64,000 nt of DNA from a virus (taxonomy: Duplodnaviria > Heunggongvirae > Uroviricota > Caudoviricetes): IMG/VR virus record IMGVR_UViG_3300024273_002067; one strand, given 5' to 3'. Made by a program: the position numbers and the translations under genes. The notes under the pieces are model-generated. The model ran no database searches and had not been told where the DNA came from. It saw nothing but the letters and a program-made list of their open reading frames with translations. This document shows, piece after piece, positions 4,571-60,208 of this stretch. Numbering within the stretch: position 1 is the stretch's first letter; every line of letters starts with the position of its first letter.

Positions 4571-5638
4571 ATGAACATAGAACGCGACTACCTAAGATTA
4601 TTAAAAGACATACTCGATAATGGGCGTGAAAAAGAAGACCGTACTGGTACAGGTACAATCTCTCTATTTGGTAGACAAATCAGACACGATATGTCAAAAG
4701 GATTTCCACTAATTACCACCAAAAAAATGTATTGGAAAGGAATTGTAACAGAATTGATATGGTTCTTACGTGGTGATACAAACATCAAATACCTTGTTGA
4801 TAATGATTGTCATATTTGGGATGGTGATTGTTATCAAGCATATTTAAAAAACAGAGACTCACAATACATTGGGCCTTATTATACAAAAGAAGAATTCATT
4901 AACAAAATCAAAACAGATGATGAGTTTGCAAAGAAGTTTGGGTCACTCGGCCCCATCTATGGTAAGCAATGGAGAAATTGGACTAAAGATAAAGATGCTG
5001 GCGCTGTTGAAGGTGGTGTCTTTGTAGAATATGAACAAATAGACCAAATCAAAAATTTAATAGAACAACTTAAAACAAACCCAGATAGTAGACGATTAAT
5101 GGTTAACGCTTGGAATGTTGGGGAAATTTCACAAATGGCACTTCCACCCTGTCATTATGGATTTCAAGTTTATACAAGGGAGTTGAGTTACAACGAGCGT
5201 TATGATATTTGGTTTACGAATAATTACGAAACAGGTATGGAACGTAACTACGACAATAGACCTGACTTTGATGATGAATATTATACACCAACACCTAGCA
5301 GAGCAATCTCCTTAATGTTTAATCAACGTTCAGTAGATACTTTCTTAGGTTTACCATTCAACATAGCATCTTATGGTTTACTATTAAAAATAATAGCCAA
5401 AGAAGTTAATATGGTTCCTGATGAATTGATTGGTAATTTAGGTGATGTTCATTTGTATAAGAACCATATTGAACAAGCAAAAGAACAGTTAACCAGAGAA
5501 CCGATGAATTTGTCTGATGTTAGACTTAGAAATTATGAAAACTTAGAAAGTCTTTTAAATACTAAAAACTCAATGGATAACCTTCAACTATGGCATTATG
5601 ATTCACACCCATCAATTAAAGCGCCCCTCTCCAATTGA
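4571..5638 (+). CDS. thyA: Thymidylate synthase (ThyA) with an ~45-aa insertion
   Basis: dUMP-binding and catalytic-Cys regions (RTGTGT, LPPCH); insert between FQVY and the RAISLMFNQRSVDTFLGLPFNIASY block. Confidence 0.9.
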   Translation: MNIERDYLRLLKDILDNGREKEDRTGTGTISLFGRQIRHDMSKGFPLITTKKMYWKGIVTELIWFLRGDTNIKYLVDNDCHIWDGDCYQAYLKNRDSQYIGPYYTKEEFINKIKTDDEFAKKFGSLGPIYGKQWRNWTKDKDAGAVEGGVFVEYEQIDQIKNLIEQLKTNPDSRRLMVNAWNVGEISQMALPPCHYGFQVYTRELSYNERYDIWFTNNYETGMERNYDNRPDFDDEYYTPTPSRAISLMFNQRSVDTFLGLPFNIASYGLLLKIIAKEVNMVPDELIGNLGDVHLYKNHIEQAKEQLTREPMNLSDVRLRNYENLESLLNTKNSMDNLQLWHYDSHPSIKAPLSN

Positions 5639-18474: not shown

Positions 18475-20091
18475 ATGAAAAAGATTATTATCAACTTATC
18501 ACTATTAGCATTAGGACTAATAATGTCAAACACCTTAACTGCTCAAGCGTCATCTGTATGGGCTACTGTTGAAAGTTTAGAAGCACTAAAACAAGACAAA
18601 AACTTTCAAGACTTACAACAAGAATTAAACTTAAAGTACGAACAAGCTTTATCATCTTCAAAAAAAGAACATTTACAAAAAGTTTATGAATTTAAATGTG
18701 AATGTGATGAAGTAGACCTTTATACATCAATGCACAAAATTAATTCAGTTAACAAAATTGAATATGGACCTAAATACGAAAGCTTATCAGAACCAAATGA
18801 CTATAATTCATTAAGCACAAACTCAAGTTGGCATCTAGATTTAATTAATGCTCAATTAGCTTGGCAATTTACACATGGAAATATTGACATTGCTATATCA
18901 GACCAAAACTACTTTGTAGAACATGAAGAGCTAATTGGTGCAGTATCTTACCATGACACCACCAACACCTCTTCTCAGACTCACGGTACTGCAGTAGCTA
19001 TAACAGCTGCAGGAAACACAAATAATGGCGTAGGTCTTTCTAGCATTGGATACAACTCAACTCTTTCGCTATATAGAATGAACTATGGAGAAGTTTTATC
19101 TGCTTCATATAATGGAGCTAAAGTAATAAACTTAAGCTGGACTAGTGGATGTGCCTATAACCAATATTTACAAGATGCAATAAATGAAGTTTACGAAAAT
19201 GGAACATTTATAGTGGCCGCAGCTGGTAATGGCTCTACATGTGGAGGCTCAGAAGCATTAGTTTATCCCGCTGCTTATGACAACGTATTTGCTGTGTCTA
19301 GCGTTGGAGAAAATGATTCTCACGAAAACCCAAACGGAGCCACTCATCAACACAACAGTTCTGTTGACATAATGGCTCCTGGGTATGATGTTCCGATAAG
19401 TGCCGCTCCAGGATGGTACCTATATGGTAGTGGAACTTCTTATGCGTCTCCAATGGTTGCTGGAACTGTGGGGCTTATGATTTCAGTTAATCCAGACATT
19501 ACAAATGAAGAAATAGAAACAATATTATCTCAAACAGCTTGGAACATTGATGAAGCAAACCCTAGTTACATTGGAAAAATGGGCTCTGGTAGGCTAGATG
19601 CAGGATATGCTGTTGCTCAAGTTCAAAGAAATTTAGATATTGCTGCTGCAAATGATAATAATGATGATGGGAATAATGGTCACGGAAATGATGAAGATGG
19701 TGTAGATGACACCAACCCAGGAAATGGGCACGGAAATTCAAACCCAAGTTATGAACATGCAAAACCATCAAAAGGAGACAATGTACATGTAGGCGATGTC
19801 GTAGATAATCCAAATGGAGGTTCGAACAATGTGCACAAATCATTTTCCGATGCTAGTATCAATAGGATAGTTGTATTTCCAAACCCTTCTCATGGAGACT
19901 TTAGAATAAAGTGGAAAGGAATGGATATGGAGCTTTTATATATTTACAATTCCAACTTTCAGATAGTACAAAGACATAGAGTGGAAATGTATAACCAAAT
20001 TAGCCTAACGCTATTACAGCCTGGTAATTACGTGGCAATGTTAGTGGATAGCAATGGAACTAGATATAGAAAGAGAATAATAATTTTTTAA
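18475..20091 (+). CDS. Secreted subtilisin-like (S8) serine peptidase with a T9SS C-terminal sorting domain
   Basis: Signal peptide; GTSYASPMVAG Ser motif and HGT His motif; C-terminal FPNPS... beta-sandwich tail. Confidence 0.75.
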   Translation: MKKIIINLSLLALGLIMSNTLTAQASSVWATVESLEALKQDKNFQDLQQELNLKYEQALSSSKKEHLQKVYEFKCECDEVDLYTSMHKINSVNKIEYGPKYESLSEPNDYNSLSTNSSWHLDLINAQLAWQFTHGNIDIAISDQNYFVEHEELIGAVSYHDTTNTSSQTHGTAVAITAAGNTNNGVGLSSIGYNSTLSLYRMNYGEVLSASYNGAKVINLSWTSGCAYNQYLQDAINEVYENGTFIVAAAGNGSTCGGSEALVYPAAYDNVFAVSSVGENDSHENPNGATHQHNSSVDIMAPGYDVPISAAPGWYLYGSGTSYASPMVAGTVGLMISVNPDITNEEIETILSQTAWNIDEANPSYIGKMGSGRLDAGYAVAQVQRNLDIAAANDNNDDGNNGHGNDEDGVDDTNPGNGHGNSNPSYEHAKPSKGDNVHVGDVVDNPNGGSNNVHKSFSDASINRIVVFPNPSHGDFRIKWKGMDMELLYIYNSNFQIVQRHRVEMYNQISLTLLQPGNYVAMLVDSNGTRYRKRIIIF

Positions 20092-23746: not shown

Positions 23747-24334
23747 ATGTCATTACATAAGAATCAAATAACATTATTGGGAACCATAGTCTTTGACCCG
23801 CTTGGAATGACTAAAAAACATGAAAAGCAATCTTCCTGGAAAAAGGTAGCTATGATTCACTTTGAAACACAAAAAGAGTATTGTGGTGGAATTTGTGAAT
23901 ACTATTCTTGGTTTATAAATAAACGTTTTAACATAGGACTATTAAAGCCAATAAGAGGTGCTCATGTCACTTTTATAAATGATAGAGAGGAAGACATAAT
24001 TAATGACTGGAGTTGTGTTAAGAACAAGTTTAACAACAAAAAAATAGAAATAACACTAAACGCAGAGCCAAGAACAGACTCGGCAGAATGCAAAGACTCA
24101 AGAATAACTCACAATTGGTGGCTAAATGTTTCAAATGAATCTAGATTAGAGATTCAGAAAATAAGAAATGAACTAGGATTGGGAGACCCGTTCTTTGGGC
24201 TACACATGACTATAGGTAGAGCGGAAAATTTTAAAGAAAATTCAAAAACTGGTGTGTTGAGGGCAAAAAAAATGAATGTAGAACAATCTATATACATTCA
24301 TAATTTAATTAAAAAAGGATTTATTAGATTTTAG
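23747..24334 (+). CDS. Putative 2H phosphoesterase (LigT-like)
   Basis: Two H-x-T-x motifs (GAHVTF and GLHMTI) about 80 aa apart. Confidence 0.4.
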   Translation: MSLHKNQITLLGTIVFDPLGMTKKHEKQSSWKKVAMIHFETQKEYCGGICEYYSWFINKRFNIGLLKPIRGAHVTFINDREEDIINDWSCVKNKFNNKKIEITLNAEPRTDSAECKDSRITHNWWLNVSNESRLEIQKIRNELGLGDPFFGLHMTIGRAENFKENSKTGVLRAKKMNVEQSIYIHNLIKKGFIRF

Positions 24335-24659
24335 AATAAAAAGGATTTTCACTTTCCTTTAATAATTTTAGGTTATCATCTATTTTCTTGCATTCTTTTT
24401 TAAAATTCACAACCCTATCTTCTGGCAATTCAAACCACTCTCTACCACCATCTGTAGAGTGAGACTTATATCCTCTGTGCAATATTGTTTCTATTTTTCT
24501 ATAATTTTCAGAAGAGTACGTCTTCAACAAAACCAACTCACCACTTGAGCCCGTTTGCAATTGTTTAAGTCGCTTACTGACATCACCCTTAGTTATGCCA
24601 ACCTTGAATCTATGTGGTTCTGAACTCCAATCTGTTATTAAATATATGCTACCCTTCAT
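24324..24659 (-). CDS. T5orf172 (MUG113 / GIY-YIG-like) domain protein
   Basis: IYLI...KVGIT...RLKQLQTG...LHRGY...GGREWFELPED pattern. Confidence 0.6.
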   Translation of the reverse strand: MKGSIYLITDWSSEPHRFKVGITKGDVSKRLKQLQTGSSGELVLLKTYSSENYRKIETILHRGYKSHSTDGGREWFELPEDRVVNFKKECKKIDDNLKLLKESENPFYSKI

Positions 24660-31576: not shown

Positions 31577-33427
31577 ATGGATTTAAAAAAAATATCAGAC
31601 GAAATAAAAGAAATTGTATCCAATAGGCAAAAGGAACTAAACCTCTCCTTTGTTGAAGACACTCATACTTATTTTATGAAAAACTTACAGGGGGAAATGG
31701 TGAGCAACTACCCTTCTGTGTCTACTGTATTAAAAAGTTTTTATACACCTTTTGACGCAGAGTCAACAAAAAGCTTTAAAAATTGTGGCGGAGACCCAGA
31801 AAAAGAAAAGTCGCTTCTGAAGGAGTGGAGTGATTCTGGAACTTACGCATCTCACATGGGCAGTAGAGTTCACTTTATCTTAGAAGACTATTTGGTTGAA
31901 TTATATGGAGCCTACAAAGAAGTTAGGTTACCAATCTTCGAGTGTGATGATGAACAAACTGAAAACGGAGATTCTATGATTGTTGCTGGCAAGTCTTTTT
32001 TAGACTTAATGCACTCAAGGGGAGCTGTTTTATTAGATACTGAAATGGTTTTAGGTAGTCCCGAATTGGGGTACACTGGTCAACCTGATAAAGTTTGGCT
32101 CATAGTTGGAAAAGATGGTAATCCTGGTATTTTAGTAACAGATTGGAAAGGTTTACCACTAGATACACCAATACTAACAGATAGCGGTTGGAAAAGTATG
32201 GGTACCCTAAATAAATCTGATAAGGTATATGATAAAGATGGTGACTTAGTTAATATCATGAATATATCACAAGTTAAAAATAAGAAGTGTCTTAAGATTA
32301 AATTTGATAATAATGAAGAGGTTGTTTCTGATTTTGAACATAGATGGTTAGTTTATACTGAGAGTAGTGGTGTTAAAAAAGAAAGAGTCATGACAACTCA
32401 AGAGATTAAAGATTATAATGATGGTTTAATTAAAAGAGATTCATATAAAATATTAAAGATTTCAAACCCAAAACCATTAAATAACCCTAAAACTGAATTA
32501 CCAATAGACCCTTATGTCTTAGGTATGTGGTTAGGTGATGGTCATAGTATTGATGCTAAGATAACTCAAGCTAATGAAGTTGTTTGGTCTGAAATTAAGA
32601 AAAGAGGTTATAAGGTTGGAAATGATGTATCACAAGGTGGTGCTGGTAAAGCAACAACTAGAACTATATTTGACTTACAAGGTAGGTTAAGAAAAACATC
32701 TTTATTAAGCAATAAACATATACCAGAAATTTACTTATCCAGTTCATATGAACAAAGGTTAGATTTACTTAGGGGGTTAATGGATAGTGACGGTACATAT
32801 AATAAAACTAGAAATAGTTTTGTAATGGAAACAACTAGAGAAAGTCAAGCTGATTATACTGCTGAAATAATATCTTCTTTAGGCATTAAACCTACTAAGA
32901 GTTCATTTTATAAGAAATTTAACGGTAAAATTATTAAATGCTACAGAACATCGTTCGTAACTAGTGAATTTAACCCATTCTTATCTAGAAATCAAGACCT
33001 AGTGTTAAACCTAAAGAAAGATAGAAGAACTTATAGAACTATAGTATCGGTCAAAGAGGTGGAATCAGTACCAACTAAGTGTATTGAAGTGGATAGTCCG
33101 TCTAGTACATTCTTATGTGGTAAATCGTTATTAGTAACACACAACACAAATAAGCCAAAAAACTTCGTTTCACAATTCTACACCAAACCTATGTTAACTC
33201 CCTTTACAGAGTATGACGACACATCTCTGGGTCACTATTATGTACAACTACCACTTTATGCAAAACTACTCTTAGATATGCTAAAGGGCTCTAAATATGA
33301 AAACATACCACTTCTTGGCGGTATAGTAGTATTGCTAAAAAAAGATGCAACATTTGAAGAGTATAGAATACCTAAGGAAGTTCTAACCATTGTAGACAAA
33401 ATGAATGTTTCACTATACTTAAAGTAA
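31577..33427 (+). CDS. PD-(D/E)XK (YqaJ/RecB/Cas4-like) nuclease interrupted by an intein
   Basis: Exteins carry GQPD, TDWK and QLPLY motifs; the insert 32150..33145 has two LAGLIDADG-like motifs and a terminal HN|T. Confidence 0.6.
   Translation: MDLKKISDEIKEIVSNRQKELNLSFVEDTHTYFMKNLQGEMVSNYPSVSTVLKSFYTPFDAESTKSFKNCGGDPEKEKSLLKEWSDSGTYASHMGSRVHFILEDYLVELYGAYKEVRLPIFECDDEQTENGDSMIVAGKSFLDLMHSRGAVLLDTEMVLGSPELGYTGQPDKVWLIVGKDGNPGILVTDWKGLPLDTPILTDSGWKSMGTLNKSDKVYDKDGDLVNIMNISQVKNKKCLKIKFDNNEEVVSDFEHRWLVYTESSGVKKERVMTTQEIKDYNDGLIKRDSYKILKISNPKPLNNPKTELPIDPYVLGMWLGDGHSIDAKITQANEVVWSEIKKRGYKVGNDVSQGGAGKATTRTIFDLQGRLRKTSLLSNKHIPEIYLSSSYEQRLDLLRGLMDSDGTYNKTRNSFVMETTRESQADYTAEIISSLGIKPTKSSFYKKFNGKIIKCYRTSFVTSEFNPFLSRNQDLVLNLKKDRRTYRTIVSVKEVESVPTKCIEVDSPSSTFLCGKSLLVTHNTNKPKNFVSQFYTKPMLTPFTEYDDTSLGHYYVQLPLYAKLLLDMLKGSKYENIPLLGGIVVLLKKDATFEEYRIPKEVLTIVDKMNVSLYLK
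32150..33145 (+). mobile_element. Intein with LAGLIDADG homing-endonuclease domain (~332 aa)
   Basis: N-terminal block A-like LPLDTPILTDSG, LGMWLGDGHS and LLRGLMDSDGT dodecapeptides, C-terminal LLVTHN followed by Thr. Confidence 0.6.
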
Positions 33428-35750: not shown

Positions 35751-36211
35751 ACCTTATTATTATTCTTACTGTTAAAAATAACCTCTATTTCTTTTATTTT
35801 TTCCATAAACTCTCCAGCAACTGCATCTAATTCTGAATGGAAATCATTAGAGCATTTTACAGAATATAAATTTTTACTCAATGTTATTTCTAACAAAACT
35901 AACTCTGTATTATAGTCGATAAATTTAGGAAATTCTGAAAGGAATTTTATGGCATCTTCTTTTTCTCTAAAAACAGAAACCTTATCTTTCATTATGTCTT
36001 CGTAAACATCAGTGCCCCTCTGATAAAGAGAACTATAAGAATTTTCTGAAACAAGTCTAGATTTATACCTAAAAAGACCAGTTACAACAGAGTAATAATT
36101 TAGATTCTTTTTTTCAGCGACTTTATATCCAACAATTTTTTTTTCATTCAATCTATGAAAATTTGTGTATTTACACAACAGCTGTTCGCAAAGTCTATTT
36201 GAAGCGTTCAT
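35747..36211 (-). CDS. hypothetical protein
   Basis: ORF. Confidence 0.4.
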   Translation of the reverse strand: MNASNRLCEQLLCKYTNFHRLNEKKIVGYKVAEKKNLNYYSVVTGLFRYKSRLVSENSYSSLYQRGTDVYEDIMKDKVSVFREKEDAIKFLSEFPKFIDYNTELVLLEITLSKNLYSVKCSNDFHSELDAVAGEFMEKIKEIEVIFNSKNNNKV

Positions 36212-36235
36212 TATTTCGTAAAGTTAATAAAATAA

Positions 36236-36502
36236 TCAAACAAAATCATCATTTTCATCCAATTCCTCAGACTCTTCTACAGTATCACCACCTTCTGTTT
36301 CACCAGCTGAACTGGTTACATTATTAAAATATATATGTGTGTCGTTTTTACGCTCTTGCTTAGACGCATCACTTTGGCTTCCATAATAACCATAACCACC
36401 CTGATTCTTCTGAACGTCTGGACCTCCGCCTGGGGCCCTGTCAACCTCTGTAGATACTATTTCCGACAAAACTTCTCTTACTATATTTCTTATATCATCC
36501 AT
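36236..36502 (-). CDS. acidic Gly-rich small protein with N-terminal IVREVLSEIV motif
   Basis: Shares its N-terminal motif with 45573 and 50064. Confidence 0.45.
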   Translation of the reverse strand: MDDIRNIVREVLSEIVSTEVDRAPGGGPDVQKNQGGYGYYGSQSDASKQERKNDTHIYFNNVTSSAGETEGGDTVEESEELDENDDFV

Positions 36503-36552
36503 TTCAATATATAAATATGTATAAATATTATCTTACTGTAATATATTTGAAT

Positions 36553-37107
36553 TTATAACTTGCACATGTTTAAACATATTATAGCTGTATTGTATGCATC
36601 GGTATCGGCTCTATGTGGAGTTCCTTCAAATTGAATACCAATTTCTTTTAGTGCATTTTCCACACTGTATAGCCTACTTTTATTTTGTTGCAATTTAGAA
36701 AAACACTTCTGTATATCCTTGTGATTTTTTGAGAATGGAAATTCTACACCTTTTGACTTACACTCTTTAGTCAGATGAGTCTTATCAATCACCCCCCAAC
36801 TCCCCCAATTTGTTTCTTTTAAATTGTATTTAGATTCTAAAAGTGAAAAAGCTTCAGATAATGAAATTCCATGTTTTTTAACTTGCTCATCCGTTATTGA
36901 AGTTAGCTTAGTGCAAAAATTACTCACATTAGACATTTCAGGCTTTATTAAAAATCTGTCTTGTTTTATTATTTTTTTATTTACTAAATCAATCTCAACC
37001 AAACCTATGTCTAGTATTTCTTGAACCATACCCCTGGGCGGCCTTCCCCTCCAACAAGTAAACTCAAAATCAACAACTAAAAACATTTCACTTTCCATAT
37101 GCAACAA
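36553..37107 (-). CDS. DEDDh 3'-5' exonuclease (ERI-1 / 3'hExo-like)
   Basis: VVDFEFTC (Exo I) and HRADTDAYNTA (Exo III). Confidence 0.7.
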   Translation of the reverse strand: MLHMESEMFLVVDFEFTCWRGRPPRGMVQEILDIGLVEIDLVNKKIIKQDRFLIKPEMSNVSNFCTKLTSITDEQVKKHGISLSEAFSLLESKYNLKETNWGSWGVIDKTHLTKECKSKGVEFPFSKNHKDIQKCFSKLQQNKSRLYSVENALKEIGIQFEGTPHRADTDAYNTAIICLNMCKL

Positions 37108-37209
37108 CTTAATACACTGCTTACATTAAATATGTAACAATTTACATTTAGCTACATTAAGTAATAATGTTTTTTTTCTTTTATTTATTAAGGTCCAACA
37201 AAAAAATTA

Positions 37210-37461
37210 ATGAAAGAAAATAAAGACGATAAAAAAAAAGATATTGTAGAAATAAAAAAGAAAAGCTCTGAACTTAAACTACTAATAGAAAAATATCAAA
37301 AAAGTCTTAAAGAAATACAAGGCGATTGTAAGCACACTCCTACAGTAAAGTTAGTTTCTGACAATGGGATAACAAATGCACTTAGAGTCGTATGTAGAGA
37401 TTGTGAAAAAATAATAGGATACCCTTCTGCAAGTGATACGGACAAATTTTATAATATTTAA
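37210..37461 (+). CDS. hypothetical protein with a CxxC...CxxC zinc ribbon
   Basis: GDCKH...CRDCEK. Confidence 0.35.
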   Translation: MKENKDDKKKDIVEIKKKSSELKLLIEKYQKSLKEIQGDCKHTPTVKLVSDNGITNALRVVCRDCEKIIGYPSASDTDKFYNI

Positions 37462-37973
37462 TTAAATGTTTTTTCATTTAGTATGATATTAAATTCAAAA
37501 ACAACACTTTTGGCGTATGACATTAATTTTGACTCCATATCGAAATAAATTTCACACTCATTTTTTGTAAAATCAGATTGTGAAAAAATTTTTGAATAAG
37601 AAAATGATATAAATACTAAAGATAATTCATCATACTTATCATGGTCAGTTCTAAAATTGTTTAAACAAGGATAAGGAATTGACCATGAACGATAAGCGTT
37701 TTGATATTGAGACAACTCAAAATAAGCTTTATTTAAATTTTCTAAATTTCTATAAATACATTTTTTTACGTCAAAAAAAACATAATAATGATAATCTATA
37801 GAATATTCATCTTTTTTTTCATTATAATTAACTTCTTGAAACAGCACTTTATCATGAGTAATTATAGATATTTTTTCATTTTTAGAAACTCCATAAATCT
37901 TATTAGAATTATCTAAAAGTTTTTGAAAATAATCATTCATTTTTATTTTTTCTTCTAATAAAAGCAATTTCAT
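37458..37973 (-). CDS. hypothetical protein
   Basis: ORF. Confidence 0.4.
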   Translation of the reverse strand: MKLLLLEEKIKMNDYFQKLLDNSNKIYGVSKNEKISIITHDKVLFQEVNYNEKKDEYSIDYHYYVFFDVKKCIYRNLENLNKAYFELSQYQNAYRSWSIPYPCLNNFRTDHDKYDELSLVFISFSYSKIFSQSDFTKNECEIYFDMESKLMSYAKSVVFEFNIILNEKTFN

Positions 37974-38014
37974 AAATTTAATGTAACATTTTTCAATTCA
38001 AAGTAAAGCTTATG

Positions 38015-38046
38015 TTTGTTTTATGGTATTAAAATATTTATATTTG
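38015..38046 (+). promoter_or_regulatory. Bacteroidota-type promoter (TTTG, 20-nt spacer, TATATTTG)
   Basis: Consensus boxes 29 nt upstream of the rhomboid gene ATG. Confidence 0.4.
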
Positions 38047-38074
38047 TTATAAGTTTAATTTTCTAATAAAAATT

Positions 38075-38968
38075 ATGATTTTAAATAAAAACAAACAAAA
38101 AGGATTAAAGAGACTTGTATTTATAAATGTTGCTTTTTTTCTTATAGCAAATGTTATAATGTCTGCTTCTGGTAGCTATGATTTAATGTCAGACTTTGCC
38201 TTAAGCTCTAGCTTTATGCATGTCATATTAAAGCCGTGGACTTTACTTACTAGCATGTTTTTACATATAGACTTTTTTCACTTACTCTTTAACATGTTAT
38301 ACCTATTTATATTTGGACAAATTTTATCCGAAAGATTAGGCAGCCAATCTGTAGTTACAGTATATCTTTTGGGTGGAATTGTTGGGGCAATATTTTATTT
38401 ATTATTTTATAACTTAATATCTATTGACCCCAGATATCTGGCCATGGGGGCTTCTGGTGGCGTTATGGCAGTTATGTCTGCTGCAACAACAATTAATCCA
38501 AATAAAGGAGTTTCAATAATGTTTTTGGGTAAAATAAAGATAAAATGGATTTTTATATTTTTATTTATTATGACCAGTGTATATAATATAAACATAAATA
38601 CTGGTGGCAAAATTGACCACATGGGAGGTGCTATGTTTGGCTTTATTTACATAACTCTAATAAAAAACAGAAACCTATACCTGGGGAAGTGGTTGGATAA
38701 TATTTGTGTTTATTTTTCAGATAAATTTTCAATAAATAAAACAACATTTAAAATTAAAAAAGATGAATCAAATATCAAAACTGGATTTAGGGGAGCTCAA
38801 GATAGGAGAGACAAAAAAACAAGAGAAGTGGCGGTTGATAATTTTTTAGAAAAAACAGAAATAAACGAAGAAATGGATAAGTTGCTTGCAAGGGTTAAAA
38901 AAGTTGGGTTTGATAACTTAAGCGAATCAGACAGGCAAAGACTAGTATATTTAAGTAAAAAAATGTAA
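38075..38968 (+). CDS. Rhomboid-family intramembrane serine protease
   Basis: GASGGVMAV (Ser) and DHMGGAMFG (His) in TM helices. Confidence 0.7.
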   Translation: MILNKNKQKGLKRLVFINVAFFLIANVIMSASGSYDLMSDFALSSSFMHVILKPWTLLTSMFLHIDFFHLLFNMLYLFIFGQILSERLGSQSVVTVYLLGGIVGAIFYLLFYNLISIDPRYLAMGASGGVMAVMSAATTINPNKGVSIMFLGKIKIKWIFIFLFIMTSVYNININTGGKIDHMGGAMFGFIYITLIKNRNLYLGKWLDNICVYFSDKFSINKTTFKIKKDESNIKTGFRGAQDRRDKKTREVAVDNFLEKTEINEEMDKLLARVKKVGFDNLSESDRQRLVYLSKKM

Positions 38969-38969
38969 T

Positions 38970-39284
38970 ATGAGCAATAAAGAGAGAATAGAAATTGAAC
39001 CTGGTTTTTTTGTTGGTGAAACTGTAATATTGTTAGAAGAGACTGAATTTACAAAAGTTCACAAGATAAAAATTGGCACTGTGGGCGTAGTATCAAAAGA
39101 CGATAACTTAGAAACGCTGAAGGGGTGGAAAGCTATAAATGTAGAAGAAGGCTTCAAGAGCGAAATAGATAAAATGACTCCAGAAAAAATAGATGAGCTA
39201 TATAATCATTTATCTAGGATTGGAAAGATTAAAAATGCTGACAAGCTAGATGATTTAGCAAAAATTAAAACAAATAAACAATAA
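38970..39284 (+). CDS. hypothetical protein
   Basis: ORF. Confidence 0.4.
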   Translation: MSNKERIEIEPGFFVGETVILLEETEFTKVHKIKIGTVGVVSKDDNLETLKGWKAINVEEGFKSEIDKMTPEKIDELYNHLSRIGKIKNADKLDDLAKIKTNKQ

Positions 39285-39847
39285 TGAAAGAAACACTGCC
39301 TTTGGCTAAATGTAGAACTCTGTTCTTTGGGAAAGACGTTGATATGGAATCTATAGAATCTATATCTGAAAATATTATAAAGATAAATGAAGATGATAGT
39401 TTTTTAGAAAAGCTTTATCCTGTATATGGATTGAAATATGAGCGTAAACCTATAAAAATAATGATTGACAGTTATGGCGGATACGTTTACCAGTGTATGG
39501 GATTGATAGGTATTATGGAAAGTTCAAAAACAGAAATACACACTTATGCCACTGGGGCTGCGATGTCTTGTGGTTTCATAATGTTAATATGTGGACATAA
39601 AAGATTTGCATACAAACACGCTACACCTATGTATCATCAAGTTTCGACTGGCTTCTGGGGTAAAACTCAAGATATGGAAGAGAGTTATAAGGAAACAAAA
39701 AGACTTCAGGGCAAATTTGAATCATTAACTTTAGAGAAAACAAAAATATCTAAATCAAAATTAAAAGAAATTTTAAAGACAAAACAGGATTGGTATATGG
39801 ATGCGGAAGAGGCTGTGTCCTTTGGTGTTGTGGATAAAATAATATAG
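39284..39847 (+). CDS. ClpP-family (S14) serine peptidase, short divergent paralogue
   Basis: GAAMSCG (Ser) and YHQVSTG (His) motifs. Confidence 0.65.
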   Translation: MKETLPLAKCRTLFFGKDVDMESIESISENIIKINEDDSFLEKLYPVYGLKYERKPIKIMIDSYGGYVYQCMGLIGIMESSKTEIHTYATGAAMSCGFIMLICGHKRFAYKHATPMYHQVSTGFWGKTQDMEESYKETKRLQGKFESLTLEKTKISKSKLKEILKTKQDWYMDAEEAVSFGVVDKII

Positions 39848-40152
39848 TGAAGTGGGTTTCACATAATAGATTGATTGTTGAAAAAACTTCTTCAAAAGAA
39901 ACTTTAAGTGAATGTCAAAATGATTTTTATAGTTTATATGAGGGTGTGTCACTATTCAATTATAAATTTAATACAGTTAACAGAGTGTTTCGTTATAACA
40001 AAATGTCTGATAAAGAAAAAAAAACTCTTTTGTCCTTGTTAGATAGTGCGACAACCACAGATGAAATTAAAAAAATAATAAAAATAAATAAACTCCAAAC
40101 AAACTTGCGGCATATAGACACCCAGGAGAGAGTACGACATTTAGATTTATGA
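39847..40152 (+). CDS. hypothetical protein
   Basis: ORF. Confidence 0.4.
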   Translation: MKWVSHNRLIVEKTSSKETLSECQNDFYSLYEGVSLFNYKFNTVNRVFRYNKMSDKEKKTLLSLLDSATTTDEIKKIIKINKLQTNLRHIDTQERVRHLDL

Positions 40153-40643
40153 TGGAAATTGAATGGCTATTAGTTAATTATAAACATGACAAGGATAATG
40201 ATAAAATGTATTCTGATTGTGTAGAAATAAAAGATAATAAAATTTTTAATGATTTAACATTTTCGCAATCAATTAGAGGTAATGTGAAAAATGTTGGATT
40301 TTTTAAATTTCGTATAACTAAAGGTTGTGATATAAGATATTATGCTAATTTCAGTAGAATAAAAAATCATTCAAGATTTAAAAACAAATTCTTATTAACA
40401 TTAACTGGTCAAATTGATGTTTTAAGCCCAAGCCACCATAATAGCAATCAGGCCAAAATTCAAGTCGCAGGCTCTTATGACAAAGCAAGAGATGCACTTC
40501 AGGCTGCGAATGACATTTCTAATGGCTTTATAAATTCATTAGTTAGTGGTGGAGATAATTTGGAATTTTGCAAAGAAAGCAAAAAATTATTAATAGAAAA
40601 AAAACATGAGCTTCGGTTCGTTGGGCGACCACAATTAAAATAA
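40149..40643 (+). CDS. hypothetical protein
   Basis: ORF. Confidence 0.4.
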   Translation: MMEIEWLLVNYKHDKDNDKMYSDCVEIKDNKIFNDLTFSQSIRGNVKNVGFFKFRITKGCDIRYYANFSRIKNHSRFKNKFLLTLTGQIDVLSPSHHNSNQAKIQVAGSYDKARDALQAANDISNGFINSLVSGGDNLEFCKESKKLLIEKKHELRFVGRPQLK

Positions 40644-40648
40644 AAATT

Positions 40649-41209
40649 ATGATTAAAGAAATAGTAAAATATGGTGATGATATACTTAGAATTGTTTGTG
40701 AGAAATACGCTTCTGGTGCTATTGACATCAATGAATTAATTTCAAACCTAAAAGACACACTTAACTCAGTTAAAAATGGAGCAGGATTAGCTTCTCCACA
40801 AATAGGCATTAATAATAGAGTTTTTGTAACCAGAAACTATAGAGACGACAAGCCAGATGAAATGCTTACATTCATAAATCCAGAAATAATAACAAAGTCT
40901 AAAGAACAAGTTAAGGTTCCTGATGGCTGCTTAAGCATACCCAATATACACTCTGAAACAGAAAGACATTCTTACATAACAGTATCTTACCTGGATGAGG
41001 GGCTAAATAGAGTGGAAGAAGAGTTAGAGGGATTTCAATCTGTTGTGTTTCAACATGAACTAGACCACTTAAATGGCGTTTTGTTTTTAGACTTGTTAAG
41101 TCAGGAAGAAAAAGAAAAGATTGAAGAGTTTATTTTGAGACAGAAAAGTGAGCCTAACATATTTTATATTGAAGGAAAAATAATTGAAATGAGTTTAAAA
41201 AATGGCTAA
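40649..41209 (+). CDS. def: Peptide deformylase
   Basis: GAGLASPQIG, GCLSIP, HELDHLNG motifs. Confidence 0.85.
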   Translation: MIKEIVKYGDDILRIVCEKYASGAIDINELISNLKDTLNSVKNGAGLASPQIGINNRVFVTRNYRDDKPDEMLTFINPEIITKSKEQVKVPDGCLSIPNIHSETERHSYITVSYLDEGLNRVEEELEGFQSVVFQHELDHLNGVLFLDLLSQEEKEKIEEFILRQKSEPNIFYIEGKIIEMSLKNG

Positions 41210-41423
41210 AAAAATAATGTTTGAAGAAGTGATGCGTGAAGAGTCTAGAATTTTTAGAGTTAATATGGGAACTATACCTCCAGGTGAGGTTGAAGCTTTT
41301 TTGGCCAAAATTAAATCAGAATATAAGAAAAGTCCCATCATGCATTTCCAACAAAACTTATACAAAAGAACCCTCATTACAGAGAAGGTAGAAAAATTCC
41401 CACCATTGCCATATGAAAGATAG
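41202..41423 (+). CDS. hypothetical protein
   Basis: ORF. Confidence 0.35.
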   Translation: MAKKIMFEEVMREESRIFRVNMGTIPPGEVEAFLAKIKSEYKKSPIMHFQQNLYKRTLITEKVEKFPPLPYER

Positions 41424-41487
41424 CTATTACTTTCCAATAAGATAAAAGGATTATTGACTTTTGTAAAAAATATGTTATTTATAATAT

Positions 41488-42195
41488 ATGTACAAAAGAC
41501 TATCAGGATTCAACATAAGGAAGGCAATGGAGTTGGAAATATCTATAGAAGATATTTTTCAAATAACCACGGAAGAAGAGGGGGATAAAGCAGCTAAAGA
41601 AATATACTTAGATGACATAACACACTCTTCAGAGATAGATAATATAGATGAAATTTTTAAAGATGATAAAAATATAATTTTTTACTATTCTCCCAAAAAA
41701 GAGGTTATCATAAACGAAACTCTTAAAGCTTATATTTATGAATTTTATGTAGCAAGTCGTGAATTTGAACCAGGAGCTGGTGATTCTATAATATTATCTG
41801 AAAAGTCTAAAGAAATTATGTTTTTAAACACAGAGGTAATTGGTAACTCTGATTTTATAGAAAACATTATGGCTGCCCAAAGATATTTGGGACAATTTGA
41901 AAAAGCTATATTCAAAAGAAAATTTATTGGAATAGGAAACTTTCAAATGGAAGAATACGCTATAAGTCATTTAATGGTTGGATTCTCAGAACTTCATTTA
42001 CTGGACTTCTTCATAAAGGACAGTAATTTAATATCTACCATTACAAATATAATATCAGCAGAATATGAAAAAGATATTTTGGAGCAAAAAGAATATTTTA
42101 CAGAAGAAGAGTTTGAGGTTTTAATGCAAACTGTTAATAAGCACAAAAAGATTCTAAGCGGAAGAAATAGTGGATTAGACTTTGATTTTACATAA
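41488..42195 (+). CDS. hypothetical protein
   Basis: ORF. Confidence 0.4.
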   Translation: MYKRLSGFNIRKAMELEISIEDIFQITTEEEGDKAAKEIYLDDITHSSEIDNIDEIFKDDKNIIFYYSPKKEVIINETLKAYIYEFYVASREFEPGAGDSIILSEKSKEIMFLNTEVIGNSDFIENIMAAQRYLGQFEKAIFKRKFIGIGNFQMEEYAISHLMVGFSELHLLDFFIKDSNLISTITNIISAEYEKDILEQKEYFTEEEFEVLMQTVNKHKKILSGRNSGLDFDFT

Positions 42196-42251
42196 TTACG
42201 ATAAATCCTCAAGAAAGCCCTCGACTTTAGTCGTGGGAGGATGTCAAATAA

Positions 42252-42659
42252 TTACTTTCTGTCAAAATCTGCAAATACTTCGCCCCAATCTTTAGTCTTC
42301 CATTTCAAAACTTCACTTTTGTAAGTGTTATTTTTTAACCAATTTTCAGCTCTAGATATAACTTCCCACAAATCTTTAGTTCTGGAACTGTAGTCCATCC
42401 CACTATTTACCTTCTTGTTTCTAACCCATGCAATAGCTGTATTTGAGTCTGTATAAACATCCTTTTCTATGCCTTCTGATTTCATTTTTGCCAACGCATG
42501 AACAACTGCCAAGAACTCTCCAACATTATTAGTTCCAACAGAAAATGTTTCATGAAAATAAACATTTCCATTATCTGTCCAAACTCCTCTGTATTCCATG
42601 ATTCCTGTTTTGCTTGAATAAGCAGCATCTACTGATATAGTGTTTTTTTTAAACATCAA
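42252..42659 (-). CDS. rnhA: Ribonuclease H (RNase HI type)
   Basis: DAAYS...G, NNVGEFLAVVHAL, YTDS motifs. Confidence 0.8.
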   Translation of the reverse strand: MMFKKNTISVDAAYSSKTGIMEYRGVWTDNGNVYFHETFSVGTNNVGEFLAVVHALAKMKSEGIEKDVYTDSNTAIAWVRNKKVNSGMDYSSRTKDLWEVISRAENWLKNNTYKSEVLKWKTKDWGEVFADFDRK

Positions 42660-55203: not shown

Positions 55204-56178
55204 TTATTCTATAATAATTTTTTTACTATAAAGTATATTTTTTGAAGTAGCCACAACCAAGTAGGTGCCTGCAGATAAGTGGTCAGTTTTATCAATGGCA
55301 ATCAAATGCTCTCTACAATCTATAACTTCTATTTTAGAGTAAACTTCATTTCCTCTTACATCTCTAAGAACAACTAAAATTTCTTGTCTACCTATACAAT
55401 TAACATCCTTAAATAGAATATTAATACAATCACCTCTCTTTAATGGAGTTGGGTATATGTCCATTACACCATCTCCATTGGGAGCATGTTCAACAGGAAT
55501 AATATTAAACGTCTCTTGCTCACCATTAAAATCTACCTGCGTAAGCCTATAGTAAGACAATCCTCTTAGTGGGTTACTGTCAATTTCAAAGTAGTTAATT
55601 ATATTGACACTGTTGCCTGCTCCTTTTGTTTCAATTGTAATTTTCCAATCTATTGCATCTTGACTTTTCTCTACAATGAAGTAATCGTTATTAATCTCAG
55701 AAGCAGTTGACCATGATATCTCAACAATGTTTTCATTTACAACAGCATTAAATTCTATTAATTTAATGGGTAAAAATCCGCCATTACTTACAGTGGCTGG
55801 GCCTGTTAGAGGTGGGTCGTTCCCGCTCCACCAAGTATTAGAGCCAATATTTAATCTAGAACCTGAGTTGCCCCCAGTTAGTGTCCCTCCAGCATATACC
55901 TGAACTACACCATCACTATCTAAATTTATTTTTCTTCCATTACTAAATAACATCGTTCCATAAACCTCAATCCTCATGTTAACATAGGTAGGACTATTTA
56001 AATCAATTACAACAGACATTGAAGCGGGTATTCGCATTGTATCTCCTGTATTTGCAGGTACATAACCACAATCCCACGAAGCAGCACTACTCCAGTCACC
56101 ACCATCGTCAATTAAAGTACATATAGCAGAACTAGTAAGTGTAAGTGATAATAAAAATAGTAATAGTAAGTTTTTCAT
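55204..56178 (-). CDS. Secreted protein with a T9SS C-terminal sorting domain (start re-called to MKNLLLL)
   Basis: Signal peptide; C-terminal LSYYRLTQVDFNGEQETF motif. Confidence 0.55.
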   Translation of the reverse strand: MKNLLLLFLLSLTLTSSAICTLIDDGGDWSSAASWDCGYVPANTGDTMRIPASMSVVIDLNSPTYVNMRIEVYGTMLFSNGRKINLDSDGVVQVYAGGTLTGGNSGSRLNIGSNTWWSGNDPPLTGPATVSNGGFLPIKLIEFNAVVNENIVEISWSTASEINNDYFIVEKSQDAIDWKITIETKGAGNSVNIINYFEIDSNPLRGLSYYRLTQVDFNGEQETFNIIPVEHAPNGDGVMDIYPTPLKRGDCINILFKDVNCIGRQEILVVLRDVRGNEVYSKIEVIDCREHLIAIDKTDHLSAGTYLVVATSKNILYSKKIIIE

Positions 56179-56236
56179 ATGTTTATGTTTTGTTATAAAT
56201 GTAAATATTTCCAAACTTCATAAGTAATTATACTAA

Positions 56237-57806: not shown

Positions 57807-58922
57807 TCACTTAATAAAGTGCTCTCTAAATGACCTGTAAATCCCAGGAACGCCTTCTTGTTTGTTGCCTTTAATATTGTCTAAACTACTTCTAATTGAC
57901 TCGTCAACTTCGTATGATTTAGGTATTTCAATATTAATATACACAAACATGTCACCCACCACTTCTCTGCCATATACTGGTAGTCCTTTGCCAGATATTC
58001 TAAACACTTTACCCACATGTGAATTGGGGGGAATATTTATTTTTATATTACCGTAAGGGGTGTCTATTTCTAAATTTGGATTTCCGAATATAGCATCAAC
58101 AAGACTTATAGTTTTGTCTAAAACAATATCGTCACCTTCTATCAAGAACTTATCATGCTCTTTTTCAAACACATCAATCAATAAATCTCCACTATGACCG
58201 CCCTTAATAAAATCGCCTTTCCCCTTAATTGCAAAAGGCATATTAGACCTAGAGCCTTTAGGTATGTTTATATCAACTTCTTCTTGCTCATTGAAGTTGG
58301 AGCCCAAACCACCACAAGGCACACATCTTTCTTTTATTATAGTTCCTCCACCTTGACAATGATTACAATCTACCTCCTGCCTTATAACTCCCAACGGTGT
58401 AACTTGTTGCATAACAACACGACCTCTACCAGCGCAACTATTACAGGTCACATGACTATTGCCACCCTTTGAGCCTAAGCCATTACAACTTTTACATTTA
58501 GACTTTCTTTTTATAACAACTTTTTTATGAATTCCATTAACTATTTCTTCTACTGTTATGCCCAATTTAATCCTCAAGTTCCTTCCCTTTGATTTTTTAG
58601 GTGCACTATATGAATTTCTTGAACCACCAAAGAATTCTCCAAACAAATCATCCATAGATGGGTTACCGCCAAAACCACGATTATACTGTTGCCCATTATT
58701 TGCACCCATATGACCATGGGCATCATATTTTGACCTCTTATCACCATTACCTAATACGTCATAAGACTCTGAAATTTCTTTAAATTTTTCCTCAGCCTGT
58801 TTGTCGCCATGATTTTTGTCTGGGTGGTATTTTATAGCAAGCTTTCTATAAGATTTTTTAATCTCTACAGAAGTAGAAGACTTTGTTACTCCCAAAATTT
58901 TATAATAATCTAATTGTGACAT
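57807..58922 (-). CDS. dnaJ: Molecular chaperone DnaJ (full-length type I)
   Basis: J-domain HPD, G/F-rich region, four CxxCxGxG zinc repeats, C-terminal domains. Confidence 0.9.
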   Translation of the reverse strand: MSQLDYYKILGVTKSSTSVEIKKSYRKLAIKYHPDKNHGDKQAEEKFKEISESYDVLGNGDKRSKYDAHGHMGANNGQQYNRGFGGNPSMDDLFGEFFGGSRNSYSAPKKSKGRNLRIKLGITVEEIVNGIHKKVVIKRKSKCKSCNGLGSKGGNSHVTCNSCAGRGRVVMQQVTPLGVIRQEVDCNHCQGGGTIIKERCVPCGGLGSNFNEQEEVDINIPKGSRSNMPFAIKGKGDFIKGGHSGDLLIDVFEKEHDKFLIEGDDIVLDKTISLVDAIFGNPNLEIDTPYGNIKINIPPNSHVGKVFRISGKGLPVYGREVVGDMFVYINIEIPKSYEVDESIRSSLDNIKGNKQEGVPGIYRSFREHFIK

Positions 58923-59454: not shown

Positions 59455-60207
59455 TTATTTCTTAGTTTTAGAAGAACCTTTCTTTGTTGGAGGCTCCAAA
59501 CCAACCACATGGTCAATAACACCATATTCTAAAGCTTCAACTGCTGTCATCCAATAATCTCTATCACAATCTGCATGTATAGTATCAAATTTTTGACCAG
59601 TGTGATGAGCTATAATGTCATACAATTCTTTCTTAAGCAAATTAATCTGAGTAGCAGTTATTTCAATGTCTGAAGCTTGTGATTGGCCAATACCACCCAA
59701 AGGCTGGTGTTGCATTGAGCGTGAGTGCTTTAGAGCATATCTTTTCCCCTTCTCTCCTGCAGTGAGCAAAACAAAAGCCATAGAAGCACACAACCCCATA
59801 TTATAAGTTCCCACACTTGGTTTTACAGCTTGCATAGTGTCATATATTCCAAGGCCAGCATATACAGAGCCACCAGGGCTATTAATGTACATTTTCACAT
59901 CTTTTTTAGCATCTACGGACTCAAGATATAAAAGTTGAGCGTTAATAACATTTGCAACTTGGTCTGTAACTGGCATTCCCATGTATATGATTCTATCCAT
60001 CATCAATCTAGAGAAAACATCCATAGCAACAGCATTCATCTGTCTTTCTTCAATAATGTTTGGCGTCATTCCTACTGGACTCGTTTCCAAAATAGAAACT
60101 GGATTGATTACGCTTCTCATTTGAAAGTTTTCATAATCGTGAAGAGTTAAACTAGATACTCCATGGTCTCTAGCAAACAGTCTAAAATCTTTCTTTATAT
60201 TATTCAT
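59455..60207 (-). CDS. clpP: ATP-dependent Clp protease proteolytic subunit ClpP (start re-called to MNNIKK)
   Basis: Ser GLCASMA and His MQHQPLGG motifs; the track ORF overlaps the upstream gene stop by 95 nt, and the ATG at 60207 lies 1 nt after its stop. Confidence 0.85.
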   Translation of the reverse strand: MNNIKKDFRLFARDHGVSSLTLHDYENFQMRSVINPVSILETSPVGMTPNIIEERQMNAVAMDVFSRLMMDRIIYMGMPVTDQVANVINAQLLYLESVDAKKDVKMYINSPGGSVYAGLGIYDTMQAVKPSVGTYNMGLCASMAFVLLTAGEKGKRYALKHSRSMQHQPLGGIGQSQASDIEITATQINLLKKELYDIIAHHTGQKFDTIHADCDRDYWMTAVEALEYGVIDHVVGLEPPTKKGSSKTKK

Positions 60208-60208
60208 A

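Follow-up and report, generated by a model that had tools for sequence, protein, structure and literature searches.

A predicted class 3 LAGLIDADG intein in motif III of a RecB/MGME1-like nuclease gene from an uncultured marine virus

Phage Cas4/RecB-like exonucleases are already known to harbour, in their motif III, class 3 inteins that carry LAGLIDADG endonucleases. In the Cas4 RecB-like exonucleases of cluster C1 mycobacteriophages, Kelley et al. (2016) found 40 inteins, all inserted at one point of the PD-(D/E)XK motif, and assigned them to class 3, grouping with the TerL1-d inteins (PMC5050341). A survey from 2025 counts 138 inteins in actinobacteriophage Cas4 exonucleases and places the Cas4 insertion of ScoobyDoobyDoo in RecB motif III (EFK/T, the slash marking a splice junction here and below), for which extein switching from a terminase was proposed (bioRxiv 10.1101/2025.01.02.630785). 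Here we analyse a 64,000-nucleotide (nt) stretch of viral DNA (Caudoviricetes; IMG/VR record IMGVR_UViG_3300024273_002067), the whole of which we call the window, and in particular its open reading frame (ORF) at 31577..33427. We consider it highly probable that a mobile class 3 intein has invaded this gene, which encodes a RecB/MGME1-like PD-(D/E)XK nuclease of an uncultured marine virus, between Lys191 and the Thr of motif III (D-W-K/T). What is new in this case is the host lineage and the nuclease subfamily.

The window intein shares with the actinobacteriophage Cas4 inteins the insertion site (after the motif III Lys and before a Thr), Gly at its first position, Thr at +1, the combination of a class 3 splicing domain with a LAGLIDADG endonuclease and a length of ~330 amino acids (aa). 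One relative found by tblastn in phage records, Streptomyces phage Frankenweenie gp79 (labelled 'Cas4 exonuclease and intron'), holds an intein 39.5% identical over the full length, the translation reading LVDWK/GLALDTP...VVTHN/TT. The hosts differ, however, since the window nuclease is devoid of an Fe-S cluster, has no PF12705 match and is closest in fold to MGME1, and the window comes from an uncultured marine virus with 31% guanine plus cytosine (GC). Neither the exteins (tblastn) nor the 9 kb around the gene (megablast) found a match among 50,697 phage records.

Class 3 inteins were defined by Tori et al. as lacking Ser, Thr or Cys at position 1 and having a Trp-Cys-Thr (WCT) triplet at B:12, F:4 and G:5, while in class 2 inteins the triplet is absent and the +1 residue is Cys (PMC2807308). 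The founding example, the DnaB intein of mycobacteriophage Bethlehem (PMC2807308), resembles the window intein in having no N-terminal nucleophile, the WCT triplet, Thr+1, a LAGLIDADG endonuclease and a phage host, but it starts with Pro instead of Gly and resides in a helicase; this likeness is one of description, not of sequence.

The insertion, its boundaries and the interrupted nuclease

The precursor gene (31577..33427; plus strand, as are all its parts described below), taken from the ORF listing and its translation, encodes 616 aa plus a stop codon. It is composed of an N-extein (aa 1–191, 31577..32149), an in-frame insert of 996 bp (32150..33145) specifying a 332-aa intein whose class 3 splicing domain is interrupted by a LAGLIDADG domain, and a C-extein (aa 524–616, 33146..33424). 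A first-pass annotation of the window had given the same ORF, insert length and coordinates. We located in the protein the strings GQPD at aa 168, TDWK at 188–191, GLPLDTPILTDSG at 192–204, LGMWLGDGHS at 315–324, LLRGLMDSDGT at 397–407, LLVTHN/T at 518–524 and YVQLPLY at 555–561. Computed sizes are 284 aa and 32.3 kDa for the joined exteins (aa 1–191 plus 524–616) and 37.7 kDa for the free intein, close to the ~284-aa nuclease and ~38-kDa intein that had been anticipated.

A search of 5.8 billion proteins with the joined exteins retrieved 5,558 homologs, the best 120 of which are all 251–319 aa long. The top match, P0001 from Tara Oceans, is an intein-free protein of 284 aa with 98% identity to the joined exteins at 100% query coverage, and when the window protein is aligned with nine intein-free homologs (61–98% identity) a single clean gap of 332 columns appears between K191 and T524. 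P0001 is encoded by three metagenomic contigs (L001, L002 and L003) that are syntenic with the window and lack exactly the insert; L001 comes from a 145-kb Tara Oceans scaffold and is ~95–98% identical to the window. The gene order common to the window and these contigs includes an AAA ATPase, an IMPDH/GMP-reductase-like gene, DUF3307, an 88-aa ORF, the nuclease, a 264-aa ORF and DUF998. In BLASTN, L001 follows the window at 98.3% identity, the N-extein included, up to nt 32149, and the alignment restarts within the C-extein at nt 33147 at 94.8%. At the junction the two sequences differ only in the +1 codon: the window has ACA (Thr) there, L001 has TCA (Ser), and the uninterrupted site of L001 reads GGAATTTTAGTAACAGATTGGAAA/TCAAATAAGCCAAAAAACTTC. 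The insertion is thus missing from orthologous alleles and its flanks rebuild the host protein; the possibility that the region is native to homologous nucleases, considered in the first-pass annotation as a case against an intein, does not agree with these uninterrupted homologs.

Because the intein-free alleles fix both junctions, K191/G192 and N523/T524, at the protein and DNA levels, the boundary is unambiguous: the intein runs from G192 to N523, with K191 at -1 and T524 at +1. The earlier proposal that the insert begins directly after the D-x-K lysine is therefore upheld, and its alternative of a boundary displaced by one or two residues is not. With these junctions in hand, a class 1 intein whose true start lies one or two residues away, at a Cys, Ser or Thr nucleophile, has a negligible probability in our estimation. 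Thr197 and Thr201 do lie a few residues downstream, the only feature, besides the caveat of the earlier annotation, that speaks for it; yet Gly occupies position 1 in every one of the 66 full-length intein-bearing proteins that we aligned (30–74% overall identity), and position 2 of the query pairs with position 2 of crystallised class 3 inteins.

The residues around the insertion are those of a nuclease. The (D/E)XK triplet, D189-W190-K191 (32141..32149), keeps its D and K in all 88 intein-free and 66 intein-bearing homologs analysed. Together with H99/E103 (motif I-like), E156, D171 (of GQPD) and the QLxxY motif of the C-extein (Q557..Y561, nt 33245–33259), this motif III triplet forms a set of invariant or nearly invariant positions, with E156, D171, D189, K191 and Q557 invariant among homologs. 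The N-extein also matches PHROG 298 'exonuclease' (E 5.9e-13). The joined exteins had no match in Pfam, even at E<=10, or in NCBIfam, and a profile of the 88 intein-free homologs found none among PDB sequences, so the nuclease assignment was taken from structure prediction and Foldseek. The AlphaFold model of the intein-free allele (predicted local distance difference test, pLDDT, 94.9; predicted template modelling score, pTM, 0.90) shows a restriction-endonuclease-like fold, for which Foldseek returned human MGME1 (E 7e-6), the nuclease domains of AdnA/AdnB, Cas4, ACE1, Dna2, Exo5 and, more weakly (E 1.4e-2), lambda exonuclease, all of them RecB-type PD-(D/E)XK nucleases. Judging from these residues and the modelled fold, we assign the exteins to a distinct RecB/MGME1-like PD-(D/E)XK family, in which the intein interrupts motif III directly after the Lys and the Thr at +1 restores the D-[WY]-K-T of the family.

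The first-pass label of a YqaJ/RecB/Cas4-like nuclease holds as far as the RecB-like PD-(D/E)XK part is concerned, not for YqaJ or Cas4 membership. A Cas4 in the strict sense was rejected, with no match to PF12705 or anything else in Pfam and only two cysteines in the exteins (C70 and C123), where the Fe-S cluster of Cas4 takes four, one N-terminal and three C-terminal; from this we conclude that the cluster is absent. The YqaJ/lambda-exonuclease family was discarded as well, there being no YqaJ match in Pfam or NCBIfam. In some other hosts of this intein family (P0216, P0226), PF12705 is matched and a cluster of Cys residues is present at the C-terminus. A Sak4/RecA-like ATPase gene is situated 2.3 kb upstream of the nuclease, and a role of the nuclease in viral recombination is plausible.

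Splicing domain, class 3 assignment and splicing route

When the intein was compared with all PDB chains (phmmer), the best matches were class 3 DnaB mini-inteins, from Mycobacterium smegmatis (6bs8, DnaBi1; E 2.5e-12) and M. chimaera (6rix and 6riy). Residues 2–67 and 298–332 of the query align to the N- and C-terminal halves of these 139–145-aa proteins, through their last residue, a two-segment match that is the pattern expected for an endonuclease domain inserted in a loop of the HINT domain. Block A (GLPLDTPILTDSG, 32150..32188) has Gly as intein residue 1, and hence no N-terminal nucleophile; starting at position 2 in both proteins, it aligns with 6bs8, where the counterpart reads ALALDTPLPTPSGW. 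The block B core S251-DFEHRW (32327..32347) provides D252 (B:7), H255 (B:10) and W257 (B:12), aligned with D62, H65 and W67 of DnaBi1 and each conserved in 66/66 homologs. In block F (PTKCIEVDSPSSTFLC, 33071..33118), C502 (F:4) is aligned with the RC(118)VEVD stretch of 6bs8 and is also Cys in all 66. Block G, SLLVTHN/T (33125..33148), contributes T521 (G:5), H522, the terminal N523 and the +1 residue T524, aligned with the C-terminal PTHN of 6bs8, all four again in 66/66. The block-A-like start, the ...LLVTHN ending and the Thr at +1 recognised in the first-pass annotation are therefore borne out, both ends aligning with 6bs8 and 6rix. An additional cysteine, C238 (intein Cys47; 32288..32290), is aligned with Cys48 of DnaBi1 and kept in 62/66.

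Matches to aa 190–530 of the precursor, with E-values down to 2.9e-33, came from PHROG families that comprise intein-containing terminases, helicase loaders and primases; the terminase families match aa 191–530, likewise with E down to 2.9e-33. The class 3 inteins of TerL proteins (mycobacteriophages Omega, LittleE and cluster relatives, and Synechococcus phages B3 and B23) are 35–38% identical over the 332 aa, although they differ in extein and in site, the ATPase nucleotide-binding motif. We also built an AlphaFold model of the precursor from the 66-sequence alignment, with a mean pLDDT of 87.9 and values below 50 at the two splice junctions only. Its best PDB folds are PI-SceI (Foldseek E 2e-15), the Tli and Pho VMA inteins, PI-PfuI, PI-TkoII and I-DmoI, and against the class 3 mini-inteins 6bs8 and 6rix the target template modelling (TM) score is 0.78–0.81, so that a HINT fold is present in the predicted structure. 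PI-SceI (the Sce VMA1 intein), whose fold matches the insert best overall and which belongs to the same Hom_end family, differs in being a class 1 intein (Cys1, Cys+1), eukaryotic and ~15% identical. Blocks A, B, F and G, the C-terminal His-Asn and a Cys/Ser/Thr residue at +1 are all present, and on this sequence and model evidence the insert is an intein carrying a LAGLIDADG endonuclease, with splicing predicted.

The window residues W257, C502 and T521 coincide in the phmmer alignment with those named as the triplet of Msm DnaBi1, W67, C118 and T137 (PMC6195587). Block B of the window intein follows the D-x-x-H-x-W pattern of DnaBi1 and not the T-x-x-H of class 1. Gly1, the D, H and W of block B (B:7, B:10, B:12), the C of block F (F:4), the T of block G (G:5), the following H and N and the Thr at +1 are each found in all 66 intein-bearing homologs. 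With Gly192 in the place of Cys, Ser or Thr and a complete WCT triplet, assignment of the window intein to class 3 is supported by its sequence. The first-pass annotation had read the first residue as other than Cys or Ser, which is right (it is Gly192), and had hesitated between a class 3-like and an Ala/Gly1-type (class 2) intein; invariant Gly1, WCT and Thr+1 favour the former. A class 2 (KlbA-like) intein, in which no block F intermediate would form and the amide at the N-terminal junction would be attacked directly by the +1 residue, would likewise have no Cys, Ser or Thr at position 1. However, class 2 requires that there be no WCT triplet and uses Cys+1 (PMC2807308), which excludes it here, where WCT and Thr+1 are invariant in 66/66, and the nearest relatives of solved structure belong to class 3; we thus hold this route to be highly improbable. 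Those relatives, the M. smegmatis and M. chimaera DnaB-1 mini-inteins (6bs8, 6rix; PMC6195587, PMC7664689), have in common with the window D-x-x-H-x-W, Cys at F:4, T-H-N and the Cys48 equivalent, while they differ in their length of 139–145 aa, the lack of an endonuclease, Ala1, Ser+1 and their location at the DnaB P-loop.

Following the homology of the window intein to the MP-Be DnaB, Dra Snf2 and Msm DnaBi1 inteins, splicing would take place in four steps. An N-S acyl shift would not be possible because residue 1 is Gly; instead, Cys502 of block F, aided by His255, Trp257 and Asp252 of block B, would attack the K191-G192 bond and form a thioester branch at block F. A transesterification would then move the N-extein onto the side-chain oxygen of Thr524 (+1), cyclisation of Asn523 would free the 37.7-kDa intein, and an O-N acyl shift would yield the native ...VTDWK-TNKPK... 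junction and an active nuclease of 284 aa. The unspliced precursor is expected to be inactive as a nuclease, since the intein holds motif III apart from the other active-site elements.

This expectation bears on another reading, namely that the insertion is dead or domesticated, either a non-splicing element (a pseudogene like Arth_1007 of Arsp-FB24) or a permanent domain, so that the nuclease has lost its activity or taken on another role. There are documented cases of intein pseudogenes whose sequences resemble class 3 (PMC3196547), some relatives of the window intein have degraded endonuclease domains, and splicing here is a prediction. Against this, the ORF is intact, all splicing residues are kept and invariant across 66 divergent copies, the catalytic residues of the exteins are intact, and a non-splicing copy that cuts the D-x-K/T motif would destroy a gene conserved in thousands of homologs. 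All this makes a dead or domesticated insert very unlikely next to a splicing class 3 intein.

One could also envisage, quite speculatively and with little likelihood in our view, that the intein does not merely ride along as a selfish element but acts as a redox-gated switch on a viral recombination nuclease, with the marine clade possibly being a reservoir for the class 3 inteins of actinophage Cas4 and TerL. The analogy comes from DnaBi1, where splicing is paused under oxidative stress by a reversible disulfide between Cys48 and the catalytic Cys of block F (PMC6195587), and the cysteine aligned with it, C238, is the one kept in 62/66 inteins of the marine family. The marine clade is abundant, and Gly1 and Thr+1 do not vary in it. 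If such a toggle were real, nuclease maturation in large marine viruses would depend on the redox state of the host.

Endonuclease domain and mobility

The homing endonuclease domain covers approximately aa ~305–480 (32489..33016), as delimited by the Pfam Hom_end match, the secondary structure of the model and the PI-SceI and I-DmoI folds. Within a predicted pseudo-dimeric alpha-beta fold, it contains two LAGLIDADG motifs, LGMWLGDGHS (32519..32548) with the candidate catalytic residue D321 and LLRGLMDSDGT (32765..32797) with the candidate D405, each Asp being present in 60/66 homologs. The second motif falls inside the match to Hom_end (PF05204; aa 382–455, E 1.5e-5, 25.5 bits against a gathering score of 21.1) and to LAGLIDADG_3, which over the same residues scored slightly under its gathering threshold. 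The two dodecapeptides pointed out in the first-pass annotation are accordingly real. Of the hidden Markov model (HMM) searches suggested there, the one for LAGLIDADG was positive (Hom_end above its gathering score) and the one for Hint was negative in Pfam and NCBIfam. An intein HMM run against all six-frame ORFs found no second copy in the window.

The LAGLIDADG domain would cut intein-free alleles across the junction between ...GATTGGAAA and (A/T)CAAATAAGCC..., and repair from an intein-bearing copy would spread the element (homing), which would explain the existence of near-identical genomes with and without the intein. The intein alone has 440 detectable homologs in metagenomes, and the 66 related inteins without exception occupy one site, D-[WYFH]-K/T, in diverse PD-(D/E)XK nucleases. 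Divergence is far greater among these host nucleases than among the inteins that they share at that site, which implies horizontal spread. Shortened inteins of 238–279 aa with endonuclease deletions were seen in five homologs, a degeneration expected in a homing cycle. The nuclease family of the window is itself mostly intein-free, the best 120 protein matches and the best 80 of 439 IMG/VR loci being all uninterrupted. Thr is the +1 residue in 67/88 of the intein-free alleles and Ser in 21/88, compared with Thr in 66/66 of the intein-bearing ones, and alleles with Ser+1 might be refractory to homing or splicing.

A different account would have the intein splice with its endonuclease inactive, the polymorphism then resulting from vertical inheritance together with general recombination or an occasional precise loss, and not from ongoing homing. 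The endonuclease activity of the window intein is indeed a prediction from sequence, and there are signs of recombination in the gene set apart from the insertion site: 28 substitutions with respect to L001 are clustered at 31627–32032 (~400 nt of the N-extein), compared with 1–9 per 500 nt in the upstream 1.5 kb, while the 117 nt adjoining the insertion site have only 2. This cluster was rejected as a co-conversion tract of homing, not being contiguous with the insertion site, and looks like a recombination patch within the gene that is otherwise unexplained. Both LAGLIDADG motifs, however, retain their acidic residues, D321 and D405, as in most homologs, the endonuclease domain is full length and confidently folded in the model, and one intein family is found at the same site of nucleases that have diverged strongly, the exteins being far less identical to one another than the inteins, a pattern that requires horizontal spread. 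We therefore regard an inactive endonuclease as unlikely, though less so than the other alternatives considered here, and prefer a mobile element.

Five points weigh against this picture of a mobile class 3 intein. Pfam and NCBIfam gave no Hint or intein model match on the splicing domain (NCBIfam had no match on the full 616-aa protein either), for which reason that assignment draws on the PDB and PHROG matches and on structure prediction. The confidence of the precursor model is low at aa 190–194 and 525–528, so the geometry of the active site is not readable from it. Splicing, the branched intermediate at block F and DNA cleavage would all follow by analogy from homologs that are 13–40% identical. 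The presence/absence polymorphism could equally reflect a precise loss of the intein and not a recent gain, and the closest intein-free allele may not be the true pre-invasion target, given that it has Ser, not Thr, at +1.

Two further observations concern the surroundings of the gene. The divergence between the window and the Tara contig L001 changes from ~1–2% upstream of the nuclease to ~5–9% per 500 nt downstream (36000–41000), with a peak at 42000–42500 (region compared, 36000–42200), indicating that the two genomes are mosaics and not uniformly related. A small gene with a T5orf172/MUG113 domain (GIY-YIG-like) lies 7 kb upstream of the nuclease in L001 (2748–3083 of that contig, ~24323–24658 of the window, minus strand); genes of this kind are often free-standing homing endonucleases.

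Viral genome context and significance

The window, at 31% GC, is made up largely of small genes without family assignment and no tRNAs were found in it. Interspersed among them are genes for ThyA, an acyl-CoA dehydrogenase, a subtilase, a GMP-reductase-like protein, topoisomerase IA, two ClpP proteins, a ClpB-like ATPase, DnaJ, peptide deformylase, a rhomboid protein and a DNA methyltransferase. A neighbouring ORF of 706 aa matches a PHROG of unknown function (E 5.5e-72) and has homologs in large or jumbo phages (XacN1, Xoo-sp13, SCTP-2 and Weasels2). The nuclease family is present in 439 IMG/VR contigs of up to 388 kb; among 185,579 GTDB species genomes it was found in just 3, each a metagenome-assembled genome (MAG) and one of them from Flavobacteriaceae. 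The mimivirus-type early promoter motif AAAATTGA is not enriched in the window (9 observed against 18.8 expected), and hence there is no support for a giant-virus origin. We conclude with moderate confidence that the window comes from a large uncultured marine phage.

The subtilase (18475–20091, plus strand) and a G8-domain protein (55204–56214, minus strand) both end in a sub-threshold match to Por_Secre_tail, a sorting signal for type IX secretion typical of Bacteroidota, which hints that this probably viral genome is associated with a Bacteroidota host. The chaperone and protease genes, namely two of the ClpP family, a ClpB/ClpA-like double-AAA ATPase and a full DnaJ (39284–39847, plus strand; 59455–60303, 60209–62293 and 57807–58922, minus strand), form an unusually rich complement for a virus-like, largely unannotatable region of 31% GC. 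ThyA (4571–5638, plus strand; 355 aa) is of the long L. casei type and has a further insertion of ~40 aa at ~aa 205–245 with respect to solved structures; a mini-intein was considered there and rejected, the ~40-aa insert being too short.

The significance of the window intein is modest. In annotation terms, the gene should be recorded as an intein-containing nuclease and not as a 616-aa protein of unknown function. The window and the Tara Oceans contig make up a natural intein-plus/intein-minus pair with the homing site defined to the nucleotide, convenient for studying homing, the requirement for Ser or Thr at +1 and the chemistry of Gly1 class 3 inteins. The known class 3 intein allele of Cas4/RecB motif III is extended in this way from cultured actinobacteriophages to an abundant lineage of uncultured marine viruses and to a nuclease family without Pfam representation.

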